The notes under the pieces: model-generated | What the model was told of the DNA's origin: nothing | Databases searched by the model: none | Seen by the model: only the letters and a program-made list of their open reading frames with translations | In this document: piece by piece, positions 20,843-37,604 of the stretch | How the letters are laid out: each line of letters starts with the position of its first letter | Numbering within the stretch: position 1 is the stretch's first letter | Program-made: the position numbers and the translations under genes | From: Weeksellaceae bacterium | GTDB lineage: Bacteria > Bacteroidota > Bacteroidia > Flavobacteriales > Weeksellaceae | Reading direction: 5' to 3' | NCBI GenBank assembly: GCA_041677705.1 | Contig: JBAYPM010000005.1 | Location: 23,102-87,101, forward strand | Length of the DNA stretch: 64,000 nucleotides

Positions 20843-21271
20843 ATGAAAAAACTAATCTTGGCAAGTTTTATCTTTCTTTTTGGTGTAATCGGATACGCAC
20901 AGTCTGCGATCGGCACCTGGAAGACGATTGACGACAAAACCGGAAAAGAAAAATCCTATGTTCAGATTTATGAAACCAAAAGCGGAAAACTTCAGGGAAA
21001 AGTGGTGAAAATCCTTACTCCGGGCAAGGAACACGAGACATGCAAGGACTGCAGCGGTGACAATAAGGACAAACCGATCATGGGAATGGTGATTATGTGG
21101 GGTCTTGAAAAAGACAGCAGCGGCTGGTCCGGCGGACATATACTCGACCCAAACAACGGAAAACAGTACAAATGCAAAATCAGTCTGACCGATGCAAACA
21201 CTCTCACTGTCAGAGGATTTCTGGGTGTGTCTCTTCTCGGAAGATCTCAGACCTGGTACAGAGTGGAATAA
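20843..21271 (+). CDS. DUF2147 domain protein
   Basis: GTWKTIDD, GGHILDPNNGKQYKC, VRGFLG..LGRSQTW. Confidence 0.9.
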   Translation: MKKLILASFIFLFGVIGYAQSAIGTWKTIDDKTGKEKSYVQIYETKSGKLQGKVVKILTPGKEHETCKDCSGDNKDKPIMGMVIMWGLEKDSSGWSGGHILDPNNGKQYKCKISLTDANTLTVRGFLGVSLLGRSQTWYRVE

Positions 21272-21442: not shown

Positions 21443-22357
21443 ATGAAAAAACTGATTCCGATATTTTGTTTTTTGATGATCTTCATCGGCTGTTCAGAGA
21501 CCGATATCATCAACGAAACCGGCGAAATGGAGATTACAGACATCAGTCTGCCCGAACTGCCAAACGGATATTTTTATCAGGGCTGGCTGCTGGTTGACGG
21601 CAGCTTTGTATCTGCGGGAACGATTACAAATGACTCGATTGCAAACAATTATGCACGATTTTCAAAAATCGATGCAAGCGATTTGAGCAATGCGCAGTCT
21701 TTTGCGGTAACAGTTGAAACTTCAAGCGGTGCGCCTTCAGACTATGTATTGCTGATCGGTAATTTTGAAGGAAATACAGCACAACTGAGCCCTACTGTGA
21801 CTGCAGCCAACGGTGTAAAAACTTTGGGTCAGAAAATTTCTGCGGGCTATACGGTTCAGAATGCTTCTGTTCCGCCCGAAGAAGCCGGAAACTACGGCAC
21901 CAACGGAATCTGGTTTTTCAAAGGAAGTGATGAAAACAAGGAACCGACACTTCAGCTTGATTATCACGGTTTGAGATATCAGGCGTGGCTAATCAAAACG
22001 CTGGAGGGAAACGACTGGTATCTGAATATGGGTCAGATCGAATCGGATACGATTGCAGATAACTGGCGAAATTTTATACCGGCACCTTTTGCACCGAATA
22101 TTCCGAATTTTCCGGGCGAAGACTTTTTGCAGCAGCCGGGTTCCGGGACTTCTTATCCCGAAGGATTTTTTCCGGCAGATGTGAGAGGTTCAAAGATCAT
22201 TCTCACTCCTATTTTTACAAATTACAACAATGCCGAAATTCCGTTCCCAATCTGGCTTCTTCGTTCTGATGTGCCGGCTGATGCGGTTAAAGATCCGAAT
22301 CTGGTCAGAGAAATGGAGATTAACAACAGCTACAGTCTGAAGGCAAAAAAATTATAA
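21443..22357 (+). CDS. Hypothetical lipoprotein with two RskA-like (YQGW/YQAW) segments
   Basis: Lipobox FIGC; LPELPNGYFYQGWLL and LRYQAWLI segments. Confidence 0.6.
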   Translation: MKKLIPIFCFLMIFIGCSETDIINETGEMEITDISLPELPNGYFYQGWLLVDGSFVSAGTITNDSIANNYARFSKIDASDLSNAQSFAVTVETSSGAPSDYVLLIGNFEGNTAQLSPTVTAANGVKTLGQKISAGYTVQNASVPPEEAGNYGTNGIWFFKGSDENKEPTLQLDYHGLRYQAWLIKTLEGNDWYLNMGQIESDTIADNWRNFIPAPFAPNIPNFPGEDFLQQPGSGTSYPEGFFPADVRGSKIILTPIFTNYNNAEIPFPIWLLRSDVPADAVKDPNLVREMEINNSYSLKAKKL

Positions 22358-22414
22358 AATCAATTCAAAATTTGGGGAGATCATTTCAATTCTTAATAAT
22401 AATTTGAACTACAG

Positions 22415-22556
22415 CGTTTTGTCATCATTTTTGTTTTGCTTCGCAACAAAAATGCCGCCAAAACGATAACACTCACACTTCTTTAATCCCGATTTGCTCT
22501 CCGCTGACGCTCCGTTTAATCGGGGCTAAAAATATTTGACCCGCTGCTGCGGGTCA
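22415..22556. repeat. Cluster of three REP-like palindromes
   Basis: cgttttg...caaaacg hairpin (22415-22465), cccgatt...aatcggg (22488-22524), tgacccgc-tgct-gcgggtca (22537-22556). Confidence 0.6.
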
Positions 22557-22647
22557 GTCCAAATCATAATTTTTAATCCGTGATTTGATTAAAGCATTTT
22601 AAAAGTTTTCGGCTTCCGCAAATTAGTATTAACTTCGCAGCACAAAC

Positions 22648-22722
22648 CGAAAGGGGTGCTTCCGTCAGGAGGCTGAGATTATACCCGAAGAACCTGGACA
22701 GGTAATGCTGTCAAGGGAATTT
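22648..22722 (+). ncRNA. TPP riboswitch
   Basis: ggggtgc...gctgaga..ataccc...gaacctg...gtaatgct...aggga consensus, upstream of a TonB receptor. Confidence 0.92.
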
Positions 22723-22841
22723 TCAAAATTATTCCCTGTTCAAAATCTCAAACACCGGATGCTGCAGAATCCGGATGATTGAACGAACAGCGAATTTTAA
22801 AAAAGGGATAATCCGCCTTTCATTTAAAAAATTAATTTAAA

Positions 22842-24977
22842 ATGAAAAGTAGGATTTTTTTATTTGGGCTCATTTGCGGAGCCTTTGTATCGGCACAGGA
22901 AATCATTGAAACCGATACCACAAAAATCGAACTCGGAACGGCTGAAATCATTCAGAAACTTCCGCTCACAACTAAAAAAGTCAGTAAGAAACAGTTGAAT
23001 CAAAAAAATCTGGGACAGGATATGGCGTCACTGCTCAGCAATGAAACCTCGGTGGTGGTAACCAGCGATGCAGGCGCGGGCGTCGGCTATTCTTCGATCC
23101 GGATCAGAGGGGTCGCTCAGGACCATATCAACATCACCATGAACGGCGTACCGCTCAACGATCCCGAATCCCAGAATGTATTTTGGGTCAATATGCCCGA
23201 TCTGGCGACCAATGCTTCGTCGGTGCTGATTCAGCGCGGCGTGGGAACTTCTGCTTCGGGAACGGCTGCTTTTGGTGCTGCGATGAATATTGAATCAGAG
23301 AATCCGTCGAATCGGGAATTTATTGAATTTTCGGCTTCGGCAGGAAGTTTCAATACCCGGAAATATTCGCTCAAAGGCGGAACCGGTGCAATACTCAACG
23401 GCAGGCTGACACTCGATCTGAATGCTTCACTGATCAAATCGGACGGATACATCGACCGTGCTTTCAGCGATCTGTATTCCTTCGGACTGAATGCAAAATA
23501 CCGGCTTGGACAGAATACGGTTTTTACATTCTGGAATTTCAACGGAAAGGAAAAAACCTATCAGGCGTGGAACGGAATCGATGAACAGACTTTGAAAACC
23601 AACCGCAGATTCAATCCGGCGGGCGCGATTTATGATTCGGACGGAAATATTATTGATTATTTCAAAAATGAAACCGACAATTACAGACAGAATCACAACC
23701 ATCTGGGCTGGCAGCAGAATTACGGAAACGGCTGGAAATCGTCGGCAACGCTCTATTACACCCGAGGAATCGGTTATTATGAAAATTACAAACAGGATGC
23801 AAAACTGTATCAGTACAAAATTGAATCGGATACCGAAAGAGCAGACCTCATCAGACAAAAATGGCTGGACAGCAATCTGTACGGTTTGAATTTCAATTTT
23901 GAAAATCAACGGCTTGGGAATCTGAAATATTTTGGCGGATTTTCGGTCAATCATTTCAACAACAAACATTACGGAAAAGTGATCTGGCTGAAAGATGTTG
24001 AAAATTGGGATTCCAATTTTGAATTTTACAGAAATCTGTCAAACAAAAACGACCTGTCGGTTTACTCAAAAGCGGTTTTGGAACTGAATGATTTTGAATT
24101 GTTTGGAGATATTCAGTATCGTCATGTTTCCTACAAAACCAAGGCTGCACCCGGCGGTGAAAACGAATATGAAAACTTTTTTGCGTTTGATGATCAATTT
24201 GATTTTGTCAATCCCAAAATCGGAATCAATTACAATCCGAATCTGTATCAGACCATTTACTTTTTTTACGGATTGTCACATCGCGAACCGATCCGATCCG
24301 ATTATCTGGACAACGGCAGAAAGCTCGATCCCGAAAAACTGCATGATTTTGAATTGGGTTACAAAAAATCGGGCCGATTGAAACTGAATGCAAATCTGTT
24401 TTATATGTATTATCTCGATCAGCTGGTGGCGACCGGACAGCTGAACCAGACCGGAAATTATATCAGAACCAATAGCGGAAAAAGTTTCAGAACCGGAATT
24501 GAAATCAGTTTTGGATACGAACTCATCCCGTCTAAACTTGATCTTTTCGGAAATCTGAGCCGAAGCATCAGCAGAAATATCGATTATTCGGAGATCGGTT
24601 ATGACTCGGACGGAAATGAACTGCTGACCGAATACGGAAATACACCGATTTCTTTTTCGCCCGATTGGGTGGGTGCGGCCGGTCTGGACTGGCAGTTGGT
24701 CAAAAATCTGTATTTCAATCTCAGCGGGAAATATGTGGGCAGTCAGTATCTGACCAATACAAAATTAAATGACGGAAAGCTAAATGATTATTTTCTGACC
24801 GATCTGCTGATTCGTTATCAGCCAAAAATCAAAACGTTTAAAAATCTTGAATTTTCGATTTTGGTCAATAATCTTTTTGACCGGAAATATGAAAGCAACG
24901 GATTTTATTATGAAGGCGCTTATTATTATCCGCAGGCGGGAATCAATGTATTGGGCGGCTTGAGTTTCAGATTTTAA
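22842..24977 (+). CDS. TonB-dependent receptor, probable thiamine uptake
   Basis: Plug SDAGAGVGYSSIRIRG, C-terminal YYPQAGINVLGGLSFRF; TPP riboswitch upstream. Confidence 0.88.
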   Translation: MKSRIFLFGLICGAFVSAQEIIETDTTKIELGTAEIIQKLPLTTKKVSKKQLNQKNLGQDMASLLSNETSVVVTSDAGAGVGYSSIRIRGVAQDHINITMNGVPLNDPESQNVFWVNMPDLATNASSVLIQRGVGTSASGTAAFGAAMNIESENPSNREFIEFSASAGSFNTRKYSLKGGTGAILNGRLTLDLNASLIKSDGYIDRAFSDLYSFGLNAKYRLGQNTVFTFWNFNGKEKTYQAWNGIDEQTLKTNRRFNPAGAIYDSDGNIIDYFKNETDNYRQNHNHLGWQQNYGNGWKSSATLYYTRGIGYYENYKQDAKLYQYKIESDTERADLIRQKWLDSNLYGLNFNFENQRLGNLKYFGGFSVNHFNNKHYGKVIWLKDVENWDSNFEFYRNLSNKNDLSVYSKAVLELNDFELFGDIQYRHVSYKTKAAPGGENEYENFFAFDDQFDFVNPKIGINYNPNLYQTIYFFYGLSHREPIRSDYLDNGRKLDPEKLHDFELGYKKSGRLKLNANLFYMYYLDQLVATGQLNQTGNYIRTNSGKSFRTGIEISFGYELIPSKLDLFGNLSRSISRNIDYSEIGYDSDGNELLTEYGNTPISFSPDWVGAAGLDWQLVKNLYFNLSGKYVGSQYLTNTKLNDGKLNDYFLTDLLIRYQPKIKTFKNLEFSILVNNLFDRKYESNGFYYEGAYYYPQAGINVLGGLSFRF

Positions 24978-27057: not shown

Positions 27058-27129
27058 GGCCCGTTCGTCTATCGGTTAGGACTTCAGATTTTCATTCTGG
27101 CAAGAGGGGTTCGATTCCCCTACGGGCTA
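27058..27129 (+). tRNA. tRNA-Glu(TTC)
   Basis: Acceptor GGCCCGT/ACGGGCT, anticodon arm TCAGA-TTTTCAT-TCTGG, T-arm GGTTCGATTCC; CCA not encoded. Confidence 0.95.
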
Positions 27130-27223
27130 CAAAAATAAACCTCTAACGATTTGATTAAAAGATTGCTAGAGGTTTTTTCTTGCTTAAAACTCCCGACATA
27201 TTCCCGATTCTGAGGAGACCATA

Positions 27224-28201
27224 TTATTTTTCCTTGTATAATTCTATATAAAATTTAGACGTTTTATAAACCTCCTCCAATGCTTTAAAGTTTATAAATA
27301 AATGCCATTCTTTTCCATAGTCATTTTCTAAACCGTGTAAAATTAAATCTCTGTCCTCTTTGAATCGTCTTCTTAGAAAATCTAATCTCTCTTGAAAAGT
27401 TATCATAATTTCGTTTGGCTCATTTCCTTTACAGAAATCGCAATCTCCAGTTATCAATCTATATTTACTATAACTTACAGGATAATCCTTTTCCCATTCT
27501 ACTTTTCTCAGAAAACCGTCTAAAGAATTAGCATAATCTTTTGATTTAATTTTCAAATCTCGTTTTTCTATCAAAAAATGACCTAATTTTCTTACTATAC
27601 CCTCAATAGAGGTTAATATGAGCAAACTACAAGCTCTGAACAATTTAACTTTATACGCTTTTTCAATTTCCTGAAAAGTGTCTTTAAATTCTTTAAAGAA
27701 TTCTTCTGATTTAAAATAGTTATGAATATCCGATTTAAAATTTTTAAAAGTAGTTGGAAGATAGGAAGCTAATTCATCTACATTTTTATTACCAACACTT
27801 ATATCTAAAGCATCATATAATTTTAAATCTGTAATCCAATACAAATCATATTTTATGCTTCCATAATAAGAATTTGCAACTATAAAAGGAATATCTATAT
27901 CATAATTAGCAAAAAGCAATTGTTGTTTACTGAAAAAATTTATGATTTTTTCTCTTTCTAATTCTTCCGCTAAATAATCTATATAATCAGAATATCTTTT
28001 AAGACTTCTTTTAACTCTTATATCTTTGTAATAGGAAACATTCACTTCATCAGGAAGACTTACGAGTTGAATACAATGACTAAATACCACATTTATAAAT
28101 TTCTTTAATAAAATCTCCCTTTCTATATACCTACTTGGTTCGTCATCTTCAAAAATTTGACGGTTTAGTTTATCTTCAATATCTCCGATAGTCATATTCA
28201 A
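27224..28201 (-). CDS. Hypothetical protein with C-terminal HEPN-like motif
   Basis: CSLLILTSIEGIVRKL helix and RDLILHG (R-x4-H). Confidence 0.55.
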   Translation of the reverse strand: MNMTIGDIEDKLNRQIFEDDEPSRYIEREILLKKFINVVFSHCIQLVSLPDEVNVSYYKDIRVKRSLKRYSDYIDYLAEELEREKIINFFSKQQLLFANYDIDIPFIVANSYYGSIKYDLYWITDLKLYDALDISVGNKNVDELASYLPTTFKNFKSDIHNYFKSEEFFKEFKDTFQEIEKAYKVKLFRACSLLILTSIEGIVRKLGHFLIEKRDLKIKSKDYANSLDGFLRKVEWEKDYPVSYSKYRLITGDCDFCKGNEPNEIMITFQERLDFLRRRFKEDRDLILHGLENDYGKEWHLFINFKALEEVYKTSKFYIELYKEK

Positions 28202-29337
28202 TATTTAAAGGTCATTAAATCCAAATACAACTTTTCATAATTTTCATCAGTATATAAGGTTTGAGGCACTTTATAATACTTGCGAAGAATTTTATTAAAA
28301 TCGTTTTCTATAATCTCTTTTTGCATAAAAACTTTTGGTATTACATCCTCAACCCCCTTTTCAAAATTATTTGATGCTATATATTCAATCTTTAAATTTT
28401 GATTTTCCTTTCCAATAATTTTACCTATTCCGAAGTCAAATATTGCAATATTCCCAATGGCTACATTATTAAGATTTTCAGTATTTAAATCCGTATTGAG
28501 AGTATTAAAAACATCAGTAAATGTTTTTGTTATGTTATCTTCAAATTTTAGTATCTTAGATATATCTCTATAAATTCCCACAATAAGTAACAGAGACCAA
28601 TCCAATAAAGTTTTAGGTGTTAATGTACTTACTATTACATTAGAATATGAAAAGTGGTTTTTCTTACTTAAAAAAGCATAACTTGTTAAATAGTCCATTC
28701 CGAGCAACAATCTTTCTTGTTTGGAATTTCCCTTAATGACATCTAAAAGTTTACTCTTAGTATTTTTTAGTAGAGATAAATTCTTTTGAGTTAGTTGCGA
28801 CCTAAAACTATTTATTGTTTTTCTATTATCCTCACTTACTTTCTTATAATATAATGGCTCACAATTATAGAAATCTTTAGAAACATTTAATTTCAATTCA
28901 TCGTAATTAAATCTATCCCCTAAATAGACCAATTGCAGTAATAACTCAATTGCTTCGTCTGTTTCATTATTTAGCTTTGCAAAAGTAAGGTTAAAGGATT
29001 TCAGTTCTAAATACAATTCAAATAAAGGTCTTAATATACTTGCTATTAATTCAACCTCTGCTTCATCCTGAAATTTAGAATTTAATTCCGCTTTTGTTAA
29101 TATATTTTCACAATCATTAATTCTTATTACATCAAGAATAGACAAAATCCTAATGTAATTTATTCCTAATGTAGAAAGTTTATCAAAAATTCTCGAAAAA
29201 ATAAAATCTCTAAAAGAACTGATTTTATTATAATCGTTTATATTTTCGATGTAATTGATATTTTTCTCAATACTAAAAAGAATTTGTTTTACAGTATTAA
29301 TTCTCCCATTCCTATCCATTGAATTCCTACATTTCAA
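28198..29337 (-). CDS. Hypothetical protein, DUF5677/HEPN-like fold
   Basis: ASILRPLFELY and SYAFLSKKNHFS segments; 4-nt overlap with the next gene. Confidence 0.45.
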   Translation of the reverse strand: MKCRNSMDRNGRINTVKQILFSIEKNINYIENINDYNKISSFRDFIFSRIFDKLSTLGINYIRILSILDVIRINDCENILTKAELNSKFQDEAEVELIASILRPLFELYLELKSFNLTFAKLNNETDEAIELLLQLVYLGDRFNYDELKLNVSKDFYNCEPLYYKKVSEDNRKTINSFRSQLTQKNLSLLKNTKSKLLDVIKGNSKQERLLLGMDYLTSYAFLSKKNHFSYSNVIVSTLTPKTLLDWSLLLIVGIYRDISKILKFEDNITKTFTDVFNTLNTDLNTENLNNVAIGNIAIFDFGIGKIIGKENQNLKIEYIASNNFEKGVEDVIPKVFMQKEIIENDFNKILRKYYKVPQTLYTDENYEKLYLDLMTFKY

Positions 29338-29635
29338 ATTTAACCTCCGTATTCCATTTTGTATAGAAAACTATTTTATCCGCTTTCGATTTTTCTTCTG
29401 TCATATAGAGAATTAAATCAGCTTGATTTTTCCATTCTATGAAATACCATTTTCCTTCTTTGGCTTGATTTATCCAATCGGTTTTCATTAGAATCCAATC
29501 GGCTTCATTTTTTTGCGTGGTTTCGTAAACAATATAATCTGCTTCCGTTTCATTATCGGTTATGTATATTTTTTGAGAAAATACACTTACTGAAAAGAAG
29601 AAGAAAAAAACGAATAAAATAATTTGACTTTTCAT
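29327..29635 (-). CDS. Small secreted protein, DUF6150-like
   Basis: Signal peptide MKSQIILFV...; three repeats of the ..EAD/QAD/KAD..IVY type. Confidence 0.6.
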   Translation of the reverse strand: MKSQIILFVFFFFFSVSVFSQKIYITDNETEADYIVYETTQKNEADWILMKTDWINQAKEGKWYFIEWKNQADLILYMTEEKSKADKIVFYTKWNTEVKFEM

Positions 29636-29820
29636 TTTAGGTTGAATTTTACCAAAATTAACTAAATTTGTAAGCTCCCCTTTTTCCAACAACTCAAAAC
29701 TAAACAAAATTATGCACTTCTATTCAATTTTTTAAACATCCACCTTATAGATATGAACGATATTGTAATGTTAGTACTTTACCCGCTATGCGCCAATGGG
29801 ATTTATAGGCTTTGGCTTTT

Positions 29821-30723
29821 TTAAAGGTTTTCCAAAGCGTCGTACAAGTCAAATTCATGTACTATAACAAGATTTGAACCTTGCTTTCTATGCGCCATTG
29901 CTTGTTCTATTTTCTTTCCATAACAAGTAAAGGCCCAACAAGAGTTTTTCTCGTCGCAAACTATAAGGTAATTTAGTTTCGAGCTCACAGAATTAACAAC
30001 GAAACCACCATATAATTCTATTTTTTCTGCAATTTCTCTTCTTTTTAAAATCCGTGAAACCCCTGTAATGCAAAATGTTTTTTCTTGGACAATTATGTCG
30101 GGATCTATTTGATAAAATCCGGTCTTGAGTGATTGTATTAAATCATTGTTAGTGTTATCATCAGAATTTCCTACAATACTTTTACAAAAGTCTAAAACGG
30201 CTTTATGTTCTTCTTCGGTAATTTTTTTATCTAATATCACATTTAATGTAAGATTATAAATTTCATCATATGGGTATGTGTTTTTTAGGTATTCATTTTC
30301 GTCTAACCAATCTTTTAAATAACGGATTTCATCATAATTAATTTCATTGTCAATGGAAATACCCATTAGGATGCCAATCAATCTTTGGATTCCTGCGGTA
30401 ATTGCGGAGTAATAACCGCTCTTATCAAGATATTGATTGCAAAACCAGATGATATTTTCACATTCTTCTTCCGTGAGAATTTCATCAGTTAAACTTTCAC
30501 GCAGTAGATTAATAATTCCTTTATACGGATTTCTTTCTTCATAAATTTTAGTTTCATTTATCCATTTCTGAACTCCTTTTTTTTCAATTTCTGTGATTTT
30601 TTTATCACTCTTTATTCCCTTTATAATTCCAACTAAAGTTTGTAAATCTTTTTCAACTATTGAAGGATTTATAAATTGCTTGTATTCTTCGTTGTCAAAT
30701 TTGTCAAAATCGGCTGTATTCAT
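29821..30723 (-). CDS. TerB-like tandem helical repeats plus C-terminal BRCT domain protein
   Basis: Two repeats (LVGIIKGIKSDKKITEIE; LIGILMGISIDNEINYDE) and BRCT FCITG...GG...SVSSKLNYLIV. Confidence 0.75.
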   Translation of the reverse strand: MNTADFDKFDNEEYKQFINPSIVEKDLQTLVGIIKGIKSDKKITEIEKKGVQKWINETKIYEERNPYKGIINLLRESLTDEILTEEECENIIWFCNQYLDKSGYYSAITAGIQRLIGILMGISIDNEINYDEIRYLKDWLDENEYLKNTYPYDEIYNLTLNVILDKKITEEEHKAVLDFCKSIVGNSDDNTNNDLIQSLKTGFYQIDPDIIVQEKTFCITGVSRILKRREIAEKIELYGGFVVNSVSSKLNYLIVCDEKNSCWAFTCYGKKIEQAMAHRKQGSNLVIVHEFDLYDALENL

Positions 30724-30757
30724 TTTGGTTTGTTTTTTAAGGAATCTTTAATGTTAT

Positions 30758-30935
30758 TGCCATTAACGTTTTAGGTATTTTCGAAAACGGGAAAATCGAT
30801 CCGCCGCGGCGGATCGATTTTGCACCGAGCCATAATATGAAGTAAATTTAAGAAAAAACGAATGATATTCATTTTAGCGAGTCTCGGAGTATAAAGCATC
30901 AGCTTGCTATTGTGATAAACCCTCGTTATATGGCA
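30758..30935. repeat. attC-like folded spacer with TAAC...GTTA termini
   Basis: tgccattaac ... gttatatggca terminal inverted repeat with one extra base; internal perfect 30-bp palindrome aaaatcgatccgccgcggcggatcgatttt. Confidence 0.55.
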
Positions 30936-30991
30936 GGCTTTTCCGCTATTCTTTTTTCGTCTGCCTGTCAGCGTTGAGTTAGGTTTCCTCT

Positions 30992-32017
30992 TCATAGCTC
31001 ATTTATTTCCTTTTCAATCAAACGATATTTATCTTTGATATCTTCTCCTGAATAAAAGTCTAGCAAGTCTTTTTTAGTTAGTGTTCCTTGGCTTAAGAAA
31101 CGTTTTAAATATTCCTGATTAAACTCCATTAGAAGAATGGATTTTTCTAATTGTTTTAGAATTGCTTTGTTGTTATCAATGTTGTTTAGAACCAAAGATT
31201 TTATTGCCAGAATTTCATTAATATCTTTAATGATACGGTTTACTATCACCGCCAAAATATCTTTGTCTAACTCAACTTTCGTAGCATTTAAAGCAATGTC
31301 ACGAGCTAACATATACGCAATAGCCAAATTGCTGTAATCTCCTTTTTGAGAATTGATAATAGCAACGAATCCAATACTAGGGATATACCCCACGTTTTCA
31401 TAGTTCCTTAAGATTGAATTTTCTATTAATGAAATATCAAATACAATTATACTTACTTTACTATCTCTATTGGCTTGTGCTTCAATTAGCTGACTCCAAG
31501 CGGTATCTGTTTTTCGTGTAAAGACGTCTTTACTTTCAATATCTCCCAAACGAATACTTTTATCAAATTTGCACTCAATGGCAATTTTCAAATCGGGCGT
31601 TCCATTCACTTCACAAATAATATCACCCGTTTTATTTTTGGGTAAATTGCCTGTAGTATTACCTGTTAAAAACGCTCTGTCTTTTAATTTTTTGTCTGCA
31701 AAATATTGATTTAAAAATTCTGCAATTTCTTCCTCAGCCAATGTTCCTTTGATAGTTGACTTGTAGAAAAGTTCTTTCTTCATTTCAAAAATCATCTTCA
31801 AACTTTCGAGCTCTGTTCCCAACTCATTTGATGTTTTTGAAAGGAAAGATGAAATACGGTCTTCCATTAGGGCCAATACACCAATGTAAATGGCTCTTAG
31901 CAATTTTTCATCTCTTTCACTTGCAGGAAGATTATCAAAGTAATTAAAAACGATTTGATTTTCGATTTCAAATTCTTTGATTTCAATTCTTTTGAGTTGT
32001 TGGTTTATTTTAAGCAT
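30992..32017 (-). CDS. Coiled-coil plus PD-(D/E)XK (RmuC/restriction-endonuclease-like) nuclease
   Basis: KGTLAEEEI, KTGDII, IAIECK. Confidence 0.65.
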   Translation of the reverse strand: MLKINQQLKRIEIKEFEIENQIVFNYFDNLPASERDEKLLRAIYIGVLALMEDRISSFLSKTSNELGTELESLKMIFEMKKELFYKSTIKGTLAEEEIAEFLNQYFADKKLKDRAFLTGNTTGNLPKNKTGDIICEVNGTPDLKIAIECKFDKSIRLGDIESKDVFTRKTDTAWSQLIEAQANRDSKVSIIVFDISLIENSILRNYENVGYIPSIGFVAIINSQKGDYSNLAIAYMLARDIALNATKVELDKDILAVIVNRIIKDINEILAIKSLVLNNIDNNKAILKQLEKSILLMEFNQEYLKRFLSQGTLTKKDLLDFYSGEDIKDKYRLIEKEINEL

Positions 32018-32019
32018 TT

Positions 32020-32229
32020 CTAAACCTTTGAATATCTATAAACCCCTTTTATGTTTTGTGCCAAATACTTACCGTGAGAGTCAGCCTGCATTAGGTCTCT
32101 ATAAATATGTTGTGGTACGTCAAAATACTGGTAAATAGAATTGTTTAAAAATTCAATCTCCAAAGTTGATGATGCCTCATCATAGCCTATTGACGCTATG
32201 TTTGATGATGTTACTGATTTTCTTTCCAT
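32020..32229 (-). CDS. KTSC domain protein
   Basis: SSNIASIGYD...LEIEF...YQYFDVP..IY..LM.ADSHGKY. Confidence 0.92.
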   Translation of the reverse strand: MERKSVTSSNIASIGYDEASSTLEIEFLNNSIYQYFDVPQHIYRDLMQADSHGKYLAQNIKGVYRYSKV

Positions 32230-32237
32230 TTTTATAT

Positions 32238-34103
32238 TTATTTAATTATACGTTCAATTTTAGGGTTTTGAGCTCTCCAAGTTTCAACAAATTCTTCATA
32301 ATTTGGGTTTTCTTCCATTTTGTTACCCCATCCACCTGGATGCAGAGAGTTTTCAGATGCAATTTCATCAAAAATAATAGGGTCTTGACTGTCGGGGCGT
32401 CTATCTTTCGGTGGGGCTTTTATAAAAGTTCGCATTGGTAACTTAACGGCTTCACCTAAGATAATTGCTTCTCCTGTTTTTAGAATTGGTAGCATACTTG
32501 TAAGACCTTCAAGATTATCAGAAACAGCACCAGTTATATGTCCTCGGTCAGAAGAATTTGAAAGTCTTAGTGCAAAGAAAGTTCCACATTGTGAAAGTAT
32601 TGTAGAATTAATTTCCGAAGGCCTTTGACTAACTATCATAGCTCCAATACCGTACTTTCTTCCTTCCTTTACTATTTTTTGAACAATAGAGAGTGCACTT
32701 CCTTCGGAATTCAAATAATTATGCGCCTCTTCCATTAATAGTAATAAAGGTCTTTCTTTTCCACCTTGGGAAAGATTTCTTGCCCAAAATAGACCATCAT
32801 AAACTATTCTAAGCAAAACTCCTATTATAGTATTTAAAATTGTGATTGGAACGCCTGATAAGTCTAGAATTGTAATTGATTTATCACTCCCAACCCAACC
32901 TTTAATTAAAGTATCTAAATCTTCATCCGTTTTTCCGTCTTGCTTAGGCATCCAATTCCCTGGCTTAAATATGAAGTCATATCTTGGAATCCTTAATTTG
33001 GAACCTAATGAATGTAATTGTTGACTACTTCCTAAAGGCGATTCGTTTGGATGCTGAACTCTATCGCCATTAGCCTTGTTTGTATTGATTTTTTTAAAGA
33101 CAGGTGGTGTAGCAGTTTCTGGGTTTCCTTTTAACTCATTTCCATCTTTGTCTATTTCGTATGCTAAAGGCTTTCCATCTTTATCTGGATAAAATTTCCC
33201 TAACGTTTGAGTGTATAGATCAAACCATAAATGATTAATACTAAATGGGACTGGAGAGTCAACATTTATCGTTTCTTTATCAACCCCTTTAAGAGGATAT
33301 TTTTCGATAGTCTTAATTTTTTCTTGTAGAATTCTTTCGAGAATAGTATTTTGGTCTTTTTCGTTATTAAATTTCCCAAAACTTATTTCACATAATTCCT
33401 CAAAACTTAATGCCCAAAAAGGTAAATACAATTCTTTTTCTTTTCTGTCAACACTTTTGTCTGCATTTATTTTATAAATATTTGCTTTGTCTTTTAGTGC
33501 CTGACTGTACTCGCCGTGAATATCAAAAACCAAAATGCGGGATGAAGGATATTTTGTTGTATCAGATAGCGCATTTAATAGACTTGCTACTGTTGTTGAT
33601 TTTCCTGACCCTGTAGTGCCAACAACAGCAGAATGTCTTGTTATTAATTTGTTTACATCAACTAATGCTGGAATAGATTCGGCACCTGCTATATACCCAA
33701 CATTCACAAAATAAGGTTTGTCTGGTTGTCCGTATATTCTTTTTAAATCTTCCTCTGAAACTAAATGAACCTCGTCACTTATAGTTGGATATTGGGAAAT
33801 ACCTCTATGAAATTCACCTGATCTTTGTCCTTCACCAACTAATTGAATTGTAATCCACCTATTGCCATATGGTTGATTTGGAATTTGATTTTCAGGTACA
33901 GCACCTGCTCCAACTTGTGTAATAATGCCAAATAAATAATTGTAACCAATAGGGATTTTCACAAAACTTCCAATTTGTCCAATTCGATAACCTTCACCGT
34001 TAACATAAGTCAAACCTGATAGTGAATCATTAACCATTGCTACCCTTATAGTTGTCCCAGTTACATCTTGAACTGTTCCTAAATATGTAGAATTATTTTT
34101 CAT
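32238..34103 (-). CDS. herA: HerA/FtsK-family ATPase (HAS barrel + DUF87)
   Basis: N-terminal GQIGSFVKI barrel, Walker A GTTGSGKST, Walker B LMEEAH, KEGRKYG, SQRPSEI. Confidence 0.92.
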   Translation of the reverse strand: MKNNSTYLGTVQDVTGTTIRVAMVNDSLSGLTYVNGEGYRIGQIGSFVKIPIGYNYLFGIITQVGAGAVPENQIPNQPYGNRWITIQLVGEGQRSGEFHRGISQYPTISDEVHLVSEEDLKRIYGQPDKPYFVNVGYIAGAESIPALVDVNKLITRHSAVVGTTGSGKSTTVASLLNALSDTTKYPSSRILVFDIHGEYSQALKDKANIYKINADKSVDRKEKELYLPFWALSFEELCEISFGKFNNEKDQNTILERILQEKIKTIEKYPLKGVDKETINVDSPVPFSINHLWFDLYTQTLGKFYPDKDGKPLAYEIDKDGNELKGNPETATPPVFKKINTNKANGDRVQHPNESPLGSSQQLHSLGSKLRIPRYDFIFKPGNWMPKQDGKTDEDLDTLIKGWVGSDKSITILDLSGVPITILNTIIGVLLRIVYDGLFWARNLSQGGKERPLLLLMEEAHNYLNSEGSALSIVQKIVKEGRKYGIGAMIVSQRPSEINSTILSQCGTFFALRLSNSSDRGHITGAVSDNLEGLTSMLPILKTGEAIILGEAVKLPMRTFIKAPPKDRRPDSQDPIIFDEIASENSLHPGGWGNKMEENPNYEEFVETWRAQNPKIERIIK

Positions 34104-35313
34104 CTAATTTAGTTTGATTGTAACCGATTAATGCTTGAAGAAAATCTCCCAATATAGAAAAATCTCCTAGTTTTAAGAGATGCTTCTCTTCTGTATCTTC
34201 ATCGGATTTAATTTTTTGAATGCAATTGGCTAAGTTATCTTCATCTTCCATTTCAGATGGGGTTTTCCATTTAGCTCTTACTGTTCCTATTATTGCTTCA
34301 TCAAAAGACCATAAAGCAAGATTATTTCTGTTTAGTGCCAATTGCATAGCTTTTGGATAACGTTCAATTTTCTTTTCATCTTTTTCATAGGTTAAAGTGT
34401 CAAATAGTAAAGCAATAGCCATAGAGTTTGGATTAGCTTTTAACGCATTCAAGATAGTATCATTCAAATGTTCATCATTAAATGAATAACCAATTAATAC
34501 CATCAGCGAATTAGGTTGCCTTAGAAATTTATTAAGTTGGTCTATTAAAGCTAAATATGGCATTTTTCTACTTTGCTCATACTTTAAGTGAGAAGGATAT
34601 ATCAGAGAAGAATCTCCGCTTTCCTTTGTAGCTATTGATCTATAGACTTCTTTGCTCTCTTTTTGAAACCAATTTATAGATCCGTGTATCTTCCATAATC
34701 GCGTCCAATGCTTGGGTATCAAGTTGTCCTCTACTGCACGTAAGTCAAAAAAAGATTGTCTTGAGCCTACAAAACCATCAAAGTAGGGGATTGACAAGGC
34801 CTCAAAGGCTTCTTCTAGTAGTACGTCGTAATTAGTAGTAAAAACTTCAATGGGTTTTTCTCTATCAATTGAAATCCATTGTGCGAGTTTGTGATATGGC
34901 GTGTCATTATCAGGAAGATTTACCATAAGTTTTTCAACTATCTTCCTGCAAATATTCTTTTCGAGCTCTATCAAGTTTTCATTTGTAAATCCTCTAACAG
35001 AATTACCGATTGAAACTTCTTTCAATCCACGAAGAAAACTCAATATATCTTCAATATTATTACTATCCTTTTGAGAAAGAATTACTTCGTCAACGAGTCT
35101 GTCATAATCATTTTTTGTGTCTGTTTCTGACTTTAGTTCTTTGGTGACAAATTCGGTTAGTTTTGCGACATCAGGAATTAATGGCCATTTGCCTTCTGGC
35201 ATCTTTACAGCAAGTGGACAACCTGCCGAAATAAAAAATCCTAATGGTTTTTTGTCTTGAGATAATGTTTGCCTCAGAAACTTTATATGCTTTACGGGGT
35301 CGTGTGTAATCAT
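34093..35313 (-). CDS. SIR2_2-family sirtuin (predicted NADase of a SIR2-HerA defence system)
   Basis: SAGC, FTTNYD, KIHGSINW, IGYSFNDEH; overlaps the HerA start. Confidence 0.9.
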   Translation of the reverse strand: MITHDPVKHIKFLRQTLSQDKKPLGFFISAGCPLAVKMPEGKWPLIPDVAKLTEFVTKELKSETDTKNDYDRLVDEVILSQKDSNNIEDILSFLRGLKEVSIGNSVRGFTNENLIELEKNICRKIVEKLMVNLPDNDTPYHKLAQWISIDREKPIEVFTTNYDVLLEEAFEALSIPYFDGFVGSRQSFFDLRAVEDNLIPKHWTRLWKIHGSINWFQKESKEVYRSIATKESGDSSLIYPSHLKYEQSRKMPYLALIDQLNKFLRQPNSLMVLIGYSFNDEHLNDTILNALKANPNSMAIALLFDTLTYEKDEKKIERYPKAMQLALNRNNLALWSFDEAIIGTVRAKWKTPSEMEDEDNLANCIQKIKSDEDTEEKHLLKLGDFSILGDFLQALIGYNQTKLDEK

Positions 35314-35422
35314 ATTTTCAAACTATTTATTCCTATTTAACCTCTATTTCAATAACTTTCTCCAAATACTATCAGCTGGTCTTATTTCCCTAGTGAAACC
35401 GTATAAGAAGCCGAAACGTTAG

Positions 35423-37480
35423 TTACAGGGCTTTTAATTCTTCAAATTCTTGTGGAATACTCAATCCTTTTTTGTAATTTTCAATATTTGAATGATTTCT
35501 GTATTTTCCAATTAATGTATTTATCGTTATAGCTGTAAAAAGAAAAACAATTATTGAAAAGCTACCAGAAATTAGAATGTTTGTTTGTAGTGTTTTGAAG
35601 TATTCAATGGCGTCATTAATATTCCAATTTGAGTTAATCAAAAGATATAATATACCACCTATAAACAGTCCAATACCAAAAAAAAGCTCAATCCAACTTT
35701 TTCTTCTCCATTTTGATACCTCCTTCTTAATCCATTCATCTCTTAAAAGTTTTCGAGAGTAATTCTGTTCAATTAGTAGTTTGTTTTCAAGTTCTGATAC
35801 TTTTTTATTGCTCTCATTTCTTTCTTCCAAAACTTGACCAAATACTTTGATTTTGTTGTCATAATTTATCTTGGACTTTTCAAGTTCATCAGTTCGCAAT
35901 GCAATATCCTTAAAAACTTTTTCTAATTTTTTAATTCTACTCTCTTCAAGTCGTTTTTGTTTTTCAGCCTCTCCTTCAAGTCGTTTTACAAATTGTTCTT
36001 TGTCTTTTTCAGCAAGAATATTTAACTCCTCAATATCTTTTAATTGTTTATTTGTAATTCTTGTTGCAACTCTTACAATATCGGCATCACTTATAGCCTC
36101 CTTTGCATATTTATGAATATTATTATCTAACTCTCTTAAAATATTTGATTTGGGTAAATTTTTGTTTAGTGTTAATGATATTATTGAAGTTAAACCAATC
36201 TCTGCTAAATCTCCCCCTTCAATTTCTCTATTTGTTTGAGGATTACTTAACCATAAAATATTCAACAAATCGTCAGCTTTTATAGTTTCTGGCTGAAACC
36301 CCTCTTTTAAAAAGATATTATCTCCTTCAACAGAAGCTGAATTATTAACAAACCAAGCATTTACTTTTTCAAAATCCTTAATCCTTTTACCTCTTTTCTT
36401 TTTGATGTAAAGAATTGCAACTGCATCGTGTAATGCAGATTTTCTCGTGGTTCTAACCTGTTCGAAAATTTTAAATTCATCGGTAAATTTTGCCTCATTT
36501 TTTAATTTGTCTGTATTATACAATACACTTATACCAAATTCATGTATTGAACTTTCCAGATTGTCCGCAACGCGCTCTAAATCTGTTTTAGAAAAACCTT
36601 TTCTATCACAAGCGTTATACACGTCTTCTGGATTAACTTTTTTCTGTAAAAAAGATTTGTCAAAAAATGCGGCCTTTGTTTCTAAAAGATTTTTAGTTTC
36701 TTCTATTGTGTCTTTTAAAACATGGATTTTAAAGCCTTGCTGTTTACTAATTTTTACTAAAGTTCTACAAGTGTGAGTTGATTCAGGTGTGTTCAAGTCT
36801 AACAATGCAACAATAAAATTAGTATCCAATAATAGCTCTATTTCACTTTTCACACTGTCTGGATTGTACTCAATGTAGCCAGATATGATTGAGCCTAGAT
36901 AAATATTTTTAATTCTGTCGTAAATTGTGGGTATTCTTCTGAAGAAATTAATAAATTGAGCTTCTGCTGTATAGTCCTCGCCATTAATATGTTGATTATT
37001 GGATATGTATTTTGAAAGAGTGAATTTATTCTTCTCAATAAAATTGAAGATAGTATTTCCATTTTCGATTTCTAATTCAGATGTTTCGCAAAATTTTTTA
37101 AATAATTCTTCTAGTTCATTTATTTCATTTTCTTGATTTGCAATAATATCCTCAAAGTCGGTAAATGTATATTGATTAATACTAAAAGCACCATCTTTAT
37201 ATAGTATAAAATGCGTTGTTTCTTCTGTATTTACTTCCTTACAAATTTCTTCTAGGATTTTTTTCAAAACGGGAATTGGGAAGTCTAAAGAATACAGAGA
37301 GTCTGTTTTGCTTTTTATTTCTAAAATACTTTTTCCTTTAAAAATTCCTTCAATGTTCATCTTTGATAGGGCCCTCTTAACAAGAGGGATAAATATATCA
37401 ATTGGACCTTTTACTAATGTCCCAGTATTTCGAATATGAGCCAACAAGCCATAAGTTACTGCTCTTTCCTTATTATTCAT
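35423..37480 (-). CDS. Large protein: central PIN-like domain, coiled coil, two C-terminal TM helices
   Basis: LLLDTNFIVALL, DTIEE, ALHDA acidic motifs; charged heptad region; WIELFFGIGLFIGGILYLLI and ILISGSFSIIVFLFTAITI. Confidence 0.65.
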   Translation of the reverse strand: MNNKERAVTYGLLAHIRNTGTLVKGPIDIFIPLVKRALSKMNIEGIFKGKSILEIKSKTDSLYSLDFPIPVLKKILEEICKEVNTEETTHFILYKDGAFSINQYTFTDFEDIIANQENEINELEELFKKFCETSELEIENGNTIFNFIEKNKFTLSKYISNNQHINGEDYTAEAQFINFFRRIPTIYDRIKNIYLGSIISGYIEYNPDSVKSEIELLLDTNFIVALLDLNTPESTHTCRTLVKISKQQGFKIHVLKDTIEETKNLLETKAAFFDKSFLQKKVNPEDVYNACDRKGFSKTDLERVADNLESSIHEFGISVLYNTDKLKNEAKFTDEFKIFEQVRTTRKSALHDAVAILYIKKKRGKRIKDFEKVNAWFVNNSASVEGDNIFLKEGFQPETIKADDLLNILWLSNPQTNREIEGGDLAEIGLTSIISLTLNKNLPKSNILRELDNNIHKYAKEAISDADIVRVATRITNKQLKDIEELNILAEKDKEQFVKRLEGEAEKQKRLEESRIKKLEKVFKDIALRTDELEKSKINYDNKIKVFGQVLEERNESNKKVSELENKLLIEQNYSRKLLRDEWIKKEVSKWRRKSWIELFFGIGLFIGGILYLLINSNWNINDAIEYFKTLQTNILISGSFSIIVFLFTAITINTLIGKYRNHSNIENYKKGLSIPQEFEELKAL

Positions 37481-37604
37481 TATTTCTATGGTTCTGATTT
37501 TCAAGCTTTGCCTATTACTCCCAAATATCTAAAATATTCTCAAATTTCACAAAAAAATTCATAAATTAGACCCGTAAGATTCAATAATTTGTTTGACATA
37601 ATCT

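Follow-up and report, generated by a model that had tools for sequence, protein, structure and literature searches.

Integrons, especially the sedentary chromosomal type and the Treponema type with a same-strand integrase, are the closest described counterparts of a family of structured sites of ~153 nucleotides (nt) in Bacteroidota, one eroded member of which lies in a defence island of a Weeksellaceae bacterium (assembly GCA_041677705.1), within the 64,000-nt stretch of DNA analysed here (the window), part of a 97-kb contig (C5). As in integrons, each cassette of the family comprises an open reading frame (ORF) and a folded site at its 3' end, the sites have AAC...GTT ends and an R''-spacer-L''...L'-spacer-R' layout in which structure is conserved over sequence, and the exchange of flanking bases fits a crossover at G|TT. 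The arrays carry resistance-type and defence cargo, and are also found without a recombinase, as in attC-site clusters that have no integron integrase (CALIN). In contrast to that of integrons, the recombinase of the family is without the IntI-specific insertion and falls below the TIGR02249 cut-off, has an N-terminal extension of ~100 residues, and lies upstream of the array on the same strand, whilst the sites differ in their length of ~153 nt, their conserved middle, and an R-L spacing of 2 nt on one side against 6 nt on the other; the window itself differs in holding one decayed site only. The system of this family works like an integron, yet its recombinase fails the test by which integrons are defined. 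The extra domain of IntI is considered essential for attC recombination.

A survey with IntegronFinder 2.0 found only In0 elements and one complete integron, that of Salinibacter, in Bacteroidetes, and at least two attC sites are now required for a CALIN (PMC9024848). The isolated site of the window, with no integrase nearby, resembles the single attC sites that are read as degraded integron remnants, however the window differs from a CALIN in having one site and a doubtful half-site (PMC9024848). In Riemerella anatipestifer, a 2026 paper reports that aph(3')-IVb with its 140-bp attC-like 3' region integrates without flanking homology, and leaves the mechanism open (PMC13148043). The Riemerella genes aph(3')-IVb, lnu(H), and blaRATA resemble the cassettes described here in having a Flavobacteriales host and in consisting of a gene and a ~140-bp 3' region with attC-like folding, however the paper names no recombinase, and the likeness to the family is one of description only (PMC13148043). 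The homology-free integration in Riemerella may be the work of the same system. No description of this integron-like system of Bacteroidota was found in the searchable literature.

Every ORF of at least 100 residues from position 37504 down to 27224 of the window lies on the minus strand, in agreement with the co-orientation that the original prediction, made from the letters alone, had noted for 37480 to 27224. These ORFs fall into four tight transcription units with three longer gaps between them, the spacers A, B, and C, all of which had been proposed as attC-like boundaries marked by TAAC...GTTA. One junction of the island, spacer B, carries a decayed member of the phylum-wide structured-site family; the other two junctions do not. 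The reading that we consider probable is that of a foreign defence island with one decayed junction site of the cassette family and no active array. The features of spacer B are as follows, in window coordinates:

30724-30991, minus strand: gap B, 268 nt, intergenic, between the genes of a 341-residue protein and a BRCT-domain protein
30751-30942, minus strand: spacer B element, divergent family member (BLAST match to the copy in genome G196; model R3)
30925-30935, minus strand: left end, R''-like box, TGCCATATAAC, aligning to the family's invariant AAC and pairing with 30758-30767 in the DNA fold
30758-30767, minus strand: right end, R'-like box, GTTAATGGCA, aligning to the family's invariant GTT
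30792-30821, no strand assigned: perfect 30-bp palindrome, then TTTTCCCGTTTTCG (self-complementary BLAST match; 13-bp stem in both folds)

The two ends of spacer B are complementary with one extra base (on the TGCCAT[A]TAAC side), and both this terminal inverted repeat and the palindrome are present as originally described. On its own, the terminal inverted repeat would be weak evidence, with its significance stemming from the homology of spacer B to the family and not from the repeat itself. When spacer B was searched as DNA against 400 Bacteroidota genomes, a single genuine match came up, in G196 (68% identity over 120 nt, E = 1.9e-7). BLAST of each spacer against its own genome, together with a search for repeats between the spacers, found all three to be unique and to have no family in common; for spacer B this uniqueness is misleading, as the family members are too divergent for blastn. 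Three models of the family were run on the window with filters off, of which R1 and R2 had the window copy in their training sets and R3 did not. Spacer B scores 123 bits with R1, 56 bits with R2, and 27.5 bits (E = 3.7e-4) with R3, aligning over model positions 1-153, and thus gives a full-length match to a model built without it, our test of family membership. It is the sole R3 match in the 64-kb window (128 kb of searched strand). The R3 alignment has the right orientation, places AAC and GTT in the invariant columns, retains the R boxes and the L' arm, and shows a conserved right arm (CG.AAAUACC.AAAACGUUA.GGCAAU), with 9 of the 21 arm pairs broken and the palindrome sitting in a ~40-nt insertion relative to the family consensus, at a place where the G196 copy has a hairpin of unlike sequence. 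Judged by these alignments, spacer B truly belongs to the family but is eroded, and is probably inactive as a recombination site. The element is solitary, with co-oriented ORFs on both sides, 64 nt past the preceding stop codon and 44 nt before the ATG of the BRCT gene, a spacing from R' to ATG that resembles that of the arrays on contigs C39 and C43 of the same genome.

An alternative that we regard as unlikely is that spacer B consists of ordinary terminator hairpins and the promoter of the BRCT gene, its likeness to the family being coincidental or due to a shared terminator-like hairpin. Spacer B does contain two hairpins each followed by a T-run, namely the 30-bp palindrome and a small hairpin with T6 behind it, and the palindrome with TTTTCCCGTTTTCG is probably a bidirectional transcription terminator. 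The independent R3 score is modest, and a 10-bp terminal inverted repeat with a gap would, by our estimate, be no rarity in 268 nt. Coincidence would, however, have to account for an alignment that covers the whole model in the right orientation, with its invariant columns and right arm conserved, as the only match in the searched strand, for the array-like R'-to-ATG spacing, for a downstream gene (BRCT) that in Cloacibacterium belongs to a cassette, and for a GC content (38%) above that of the neighbouring genes (30-33%).

The structure of the family is best seen away from the window. The G196 copy has a nucleotidyltransferase gene on one side and a GmrSD gene on the other, a short way downstream of a tyrosine recombinase gene, and as a query it retrieves a further copy on contig C39 of the Weeksellaceae genome; five copies align cleanly at both arms. 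On the gene strand, the left half reads nnTAAC, 2 nt, a 9-nt box, and ~10 more pairing bases before the middle part, and the right half the complementary bases, the complementary box, 6 nt, and GTTAnnGGCAA. The arms, with their AAC/GTT boxes, asymmetric unpaired spacer, and 15-17-bp stem, correspond in plan to the R''-L''...L'-R' of attC, the canonical layout used for comparison being that of attC(aadA7). In a set of 49 copies drawn from at least 15 genomes, pairing holds for 95.5% of arm cells versus 30-43% in slid-partner controls, compensatory cells in which both sides have changed number 258 versus 73 in shuffles, and the covariation score is 0.70 versus 0.16, with AAC and GTT near-invariant across the copies. 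Single-stranded DNA folds reproduce the modelled arm pairing, a little better for the bottom strand, however the thermodynamic z scores are modest, and the case for the structure of the family therefore rests on covariation, not stability. Judged by our own models, the family shows the architecture of attC (imperfect hairpin, AAC/GTT, structure over sequence), and the window copy shows it in part. Rfam in permissive mode gave no family match on the island or on a full array. A whole-genome scan for TAAC...GTTA with complementary arms gave an energy distribution equal to that of a CAAT...ATTG control, with the C39 element alone standing out.

Family elements (E <= 1e-5) were found in 177 of 401 sampled Bacteroidota genomes (~44%), representing 96 of 180 genera. 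G196 holds ~19 copies in three co-oriented arrays, the first of which alternates gene and element, with elements abutting the ORFs, and carries a LinB-like nucleotidyltransferase, GmrSD, a DHPS-like protein, a split GmrSD, an HNH endonuclease, and a Schlafen-ATPase. With R1 and later models, six copies were found in the genome of the window: a pair each on C39 and C43, a partial copy on C10, and that of the window. The C39 copies (24073-24225 and 22945-23097, minus strand) flank pairs of small genes within an array region of 21700-24620; after the last cassette follows a shorter, different hairpin region of the form TAACC...GGTTA (21640-21740). The C43 copies (20908-21060 and 22660-22814) are co-oriented beside a contig end with one ORF between them. 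An undescribed cassette system in Bacteroidota, as the original prediction supposed, thus does exist, carries defence and resistance genes, and has arrays in this very genome; the island is not such an array.

A crossover at G|TT would place whatever follows GTT in the next cassette, and those bases would then have to be complementary to the ones preceding the next AAC. The 3' flank of one element complements the 5' flank of the following element at 4.7 of 7 positions on average, and at 6 or more of 7 in 9 of 17 pairs, compared with 2.6 for non-adjacent pairs, 2.7 for the reverse direction, and 3.2 for an element's own flank. The C43 pair agrees with this pattern (GTTGTGCGT/ACGCACAAC), with the flank behind its first GTT (GTGCGT) complementing that ahead of its second AAC. 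The arrays thus bear the signature expected of G|TT crossover, as read from their sequences, and by analogy the family would work as attC does.

The recombinase that heads the G196 array is a 391-residue tyrosine recombinase, with its best NCBIfam match being NF040815 (the XerA/integron-integrase type, 228 bits). Against TIGR02249 it scores 209 bits, below the cut-off of 265, and leaves model positions ~180-237 unmatched, with ~15 residues in their place, from which it follows that the IntI-specific insertion is absent. No integron integrase was found in the genome of the window, with the best TIGR02249 matches at 108-189 bits (108 per segment) against the same cut-off, and neither the recombinases of this genome nor that of G196 contain the domain that defines IntI. 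A homologue of the G196 recombinase, 41% identical, is encoded on contig C44, and a second recombinase type lies at the ends of C39 and C10, the two being near-identical to each other, that of C10 with a partial element upstream. The original refuting condition, that no recombinase would accompany the repeat family, thus does not hold for the family, although the island has none linked to it. Across 30 named loci from public genomes that encode a recombinase homologue, the 31 independent element matches, from 14 of 14 loci with matches, all lie downstream of the recombinase and on its strand, and no element was found in the 10 kb upstream of the recombinase. This differs from integrons with an integrase divergent from the array and with attI and Pc, as the linked recombinase is upstream and co-oriented. 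The genomes with such loci include Paenimyroides, Portibacter, Olivibacter, Flavobacterium, Kaistella, Weeksellaceae, Chitinophagales, and Cytophagales, and many of the contigs stop just past the recombinase gene, as expected where repeats break assemblies. Elements are present in 27 of the 28 genomes of the 401-genome sample with a recombinase at least 60% identical. Recombinase homologues also occur in bins from outside Bacteroidota, assigned to Rhizobium sp. (L123), Azoarcus sp. (L130), Fibrobacteria (L129), and Chloroflexi (L144), with elements downstream of the homologue in L123 and L129; these reflect either mis-binning or transfer beyond the phylum.

That the ~153-nt family is instead a selfish repeat, akin to a miniature inverted-repeat transposable element or a repetitive extragenic palindrome, which transposes between genes and of which the window copy is one insertion, is very unlikely. 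The uniform length of the elements, their conserved middle part, their many copies per genome, and scattered single copies such as that behind a reverse transcriptase gene of Flavobacterium psychrophilum are as such a repeat would have them. All 31 matches, however, keep without exception to the orientation of the genes and of the recombinase upstream, the complementarity of the flanks is directional, from one element to the next, no target-site duplications or linkage to a transposase were seen, and the covariation of the arms keeps pairing and not sequence. The F. psychrophilum copy (L054:10503-12966, 106 bits) lies directly at the end of the reverse transcriptase gene and near a bAvd gene, in what looks like a diversity-generating retroelement carried as, or beside, a cassette.

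Spacers A and C are of another kind. Their features are as follows:

35314-35422, minus strand: gap A (spacer A), 109 nt, ordinary intergenic region; unique in the genome, no fold, no model match
29637/29708-29820, minus strand: gap C (spacer C), intergenic, 113-184 nt by the start codon chosen
29778-29815, minus strand: possible left-arm remnant, ATAAATCCCATTGGCGCATAGCGGGTAAAGT, without a right arm, directly after the BRCT stop codon
29637-29777, minus strand: rest of spacer C, ordinary intergenic DNA by its fold z score; unique, no model match

TAAC and GTTA occur at 2.7 and 2.25 per kb in the window, and the tetramers of spacer A (TAAC at 35425/35421, GTTA at 35356/35341) and spacer C (TAAC at 29773, GTTA at 29663) are indeed present, with the TAAC at 35425 being a TAA stop codon followed by C. 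The ordered pair occurs in 40 of the 421 (9.5%) co-oriented intergenic gaps of 80-300 nt in the same genome, and is thus at chance level. Compared with shuffles, the single-stranded fold of spacer A has z scores of -0.23/+0.10 with its ends unpaired, and that of spacer C +1.89/+1.34 with its tetramers unpaired; the proposed folding is therefore seen in spacer B, in which the ends pair and the palindrome forms a stem, and not in A and C. With filters off, R1, R2, and R3 gave no match in either spacer. Spacers A and C are ordinary terminator/promoter intergenic DNA, and of the attC-like boxes originally proposed only those of spacer B belong to a folded AAC...GTT family; likewise, of the spacers that the refuting condition supposed to be unique, A and C are so and B is not. 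One candidate in spacer A was rejected: its start, CTAACGTTTCGG (35411-35422), is identical at 11 of 12 positions to the family's right-arm spacer (CCGAACCGTTAG) read in reverse complement, with a right-arm hidden Markov model (HMM) E-value of 8, a post-hoc likeness that is probably coincidence. In spacer C, positions 29778-29815 are identical at 27 of 33 positions to the left arm of a Cloacibacterium element that likewise lies directly after a BRCT stop codon, with 2 of 500 shuffles reaching an equal score. This stretch goes undetected by the family models and by HMMs built from sequence only for the left arm, right arm, and middle, these HMMs being uninformative. The likeness no more than suggests a left-arm remnant of the BRCT cassette's own site.

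The remaining features of the island are as follows:

35423-37504, minus strand: unit 1, 693-residue protein of unknown family, with no Pfam or PADLOC match; GC 28.9%
30992-35313, minus strand: unit 2, four-gene operon of SIR2, HerA, KTSC, and 341-residue protein genes (PADLOC and Pfam)
34093-35313, minus strand: SIR2 gene (PADLOC PDLC04093, 1e-144)
32238-34103, minus strand: HerA gene (PADLOC PDLC04105, 5e-164)
32020-32229, minus strand: KTSC protein gene (Pfam KTSC, 7.5e-27)
30992-32017, minus strand: 341-residue protein gene, an ORF, last of unit 2
29821-30723, minus strand: unit 3, BRCT-domain protein, 300 residues (Pfam BRCT, 2e-6)
27224-29707, minus strand: unit 4, DUF6150 protein, then proteins of 379 and 325 residues of unknown family (ORFs, Pfam/PADLOC); GC 26.2%
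27058-27130, plus strand: tRNA-Glu(UUC), island boundary, at the 3' end of which the homology of relatives stops

Positions 27131-37604 form a low-GC defence island that was acquired horizontally and occupies a variable spot beside tRNA-Glu. It has a GC content of 30.5%, versus 40% in the left flank and 36% in the right, and is bordered by tRNA-Glu and rpsT on one side and by a staphylococcal-nuclease homologue, helix-turn-helix genes, and a SusC/SusD operon on the other. In relatives within the genus, DNA homology runs no further than the 3' end of tRNA-Glu, and other genes lie beyond it; the cargo there varies in five relatives, and family elements were not found in their tRNA-Glu regions. 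In the closest complete relative (G005), the tRNA-Glu/rpsT and nuclease-SusC/SusD flanks lie on separate contigs (C1 and C8) in different neighbourhoods, which places the island at a rearrangement breakpoint, and consequently no empty site can be reconstructed from relatives. The island resembles tRNA-adjacent genomic and defence islands as a low-GC foreign block by a tRNA gene with content that varies among relatives, and differs in the absence of an integrase, a duplicated tRNA 3' end, and border direct repeats. Searches found no duplicated tRNA 3' end or border direct repeats in the window, no tyrosine recombinase on C5, and no recombinase pseudogene fragments in the window. The proposed genome-wide search for the spacer family and a linked recombinase thus yields copies on C39, C43, and C10 and a recombinase on C44, with none of the latter on the contig of the island. 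A sigma-70 promoter and terminator scan gave results at background level, with Bacteroidota promoters lying outside its coverage.

Comparison of module order with relatives, which the original prediction proposed, shows identical order in three metagenome contigs of the same species and the differing cargo past tRNA-Glu in the five relatives noted above. Its CALIN-like array of defence modules separated by sites is not what the island holds: at least two sites are required and the 64 kb contain one model match, two of the three proposed sites are ordinary, and the half-site of spacer C is only a possible one and lies at other coordinates than those proposed. That the island nevertheless is a working CALIN-like array, in which three attC-type spacers serve a recombinase acting in trans to reshuffle defence modules, is extremely unlikely, for although the units are co-oriented, one junction holds a true family member, a possible half-site lies behind the BRCT gene, and the genome encodes recombinases of the linked type, both spacer A and spacer C are unique, fail to fold, and match no model, the sole real site has 9 of 21 arm pairs broken, the gene order is identical in the three same-species contigs, and the island has no partner boundary sequences.

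The genes of unit 2 overlap or lie 2-8 nt apart, with an 11-nt overlap between SIR2 and HerA. Adjacent genes for a SIR2-domain protein and a HerA ATPase, both top PADLOC matches, identify by profile a SIR2-HerA anti-phage system, to which the window operon is alike in its overlapping pair, and from which it differs in that genes for a KTSC protein and the 341-residue protein follow in the same operon. The 341-residue protein keeps an identity of 85-92% across very distant Bacteroidota (Saprospiraceae, Carboxylicivirga, Arthrospiribacter, and Flavobacterium psychrophilum), with partners that vary between SIR2-HerA-KTSC in some loci and an AAA_13 ATPase in others. By eye, it shows a D...E-x-K motif (PDLKIAIECK) typical of PD-(D/E)xK nucleases, and may thus be a putative nuclease of a SIR2-HerA-KTSC-nuclease operon. 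Homology among four loci of the operon stops at the stop codon of its gene.

The BRCT gene is best read as a former cassette gene. Its Cloacibacterium homologue, 80% identical, is the first of three cassettes, with the element starting at its stop codon; other homologues lie in unrelated contexts, and the DNA homology of the window locus to Cloacibacterium is limited to the ORF. In Cloacibacterium (L113; 7903-8330, 12317-12500, and 13741-13990), all three elements carry one and the same ~50-nt palindrome, CGATGTGGTCGAAATCCGCTCCGCTACTTCCGACCACATCG, after or in place of the right-end GTT; this looks like a second small element inserted in recombination sites.

By analogy with integrons, the family site would terminate gene cassettes in co-oriented, recombinase-headed arrays, in which the linked Xer-like recombinase would recombine the folded single-stranded site at G|TT and each cassette would run from TTnnnnnn through its ORF to the G of the next site. 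Together with the neighbour upstream of it, the BRCT gene may once have formed a pair of adjacent cassettes, or the two may have been copied from an array, and we infer that both came from or passed through one. The site that they shared, spacer B, would have decayed afterwards, with 9 of its 21 pairs broken and a hairpin inserted, and the BRCT cassette's own site would have been reduced to at most a left-arm remnant. Today, the spacer B element is most likely just a terminator or insulator between two operons, and the island at most the fossil of a cassette array.

Several points weigh against this reading of a foreign island with one decayed cassette site. Spacer B is weak once excluded from training (27.5 bits, E = 3.7e-4), and its BLAST likeness to the G196 copy lies partly within the region of the inserted hairpin that both share. 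A second boundary sequence like GTTATATGGCA, as a partner for spacer B, was searched for in the island and not found, leaving the extent of the upstream "cassette" undefined. The left-arm remnant rests on one of three pairwise comparisons (p ~0.004, uncorrected), and the same four genes as in unit 2 occur in a Saprospiraceae contig without any element after them. The second-type recombinase of C39, which starts at 24304 and is cut by the contig end, is on the strand opposite to the array and points away from it. Furthermore, sequence patterns are the source of the proposed G|TT crossover, of the folded single-stranded substrate, and of the assignment of the acting recombinase.

A bolder version, which we consider rather unlikely, is that the whole tRNA-Glu island was built cassette by cassette by the integron-like system of Bacteroidota, with the sites decaying after capture. 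Were this so, multi-gene operons such as SIR2-HerA-KTSC-nuclease would travel as cassettes, many "defence islands" of Bacteroidota would be fossil cassette arrays, and the window would represent an intermediate stage, in which one site is eroded, one is reduced to a half-site, and two have been erased.

A family of structured sites with the logic of integrons in 44% of 401 sampled genomes stands in contrast to the near-absence of integrons in surveys of Bacteroidetes (PMC9024848), and its cargo comprises defence and resistance-type genes (a LinB-like nucleotidyltransferase, a DHPS-like protein, and GmrSD). If confirmed, the system would widen the definition of an integron, could explain the homology-free gene capture of Riemerella, and would offer a way to find mobile defence genes in Bacteroidota. 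The window adds that cassette sites also persist as eroded single copies inside ordinary defence islands, and hence that the modules of such islands can originate as cassettes, although an AAC...GTT pair by itself does not testify to an array.

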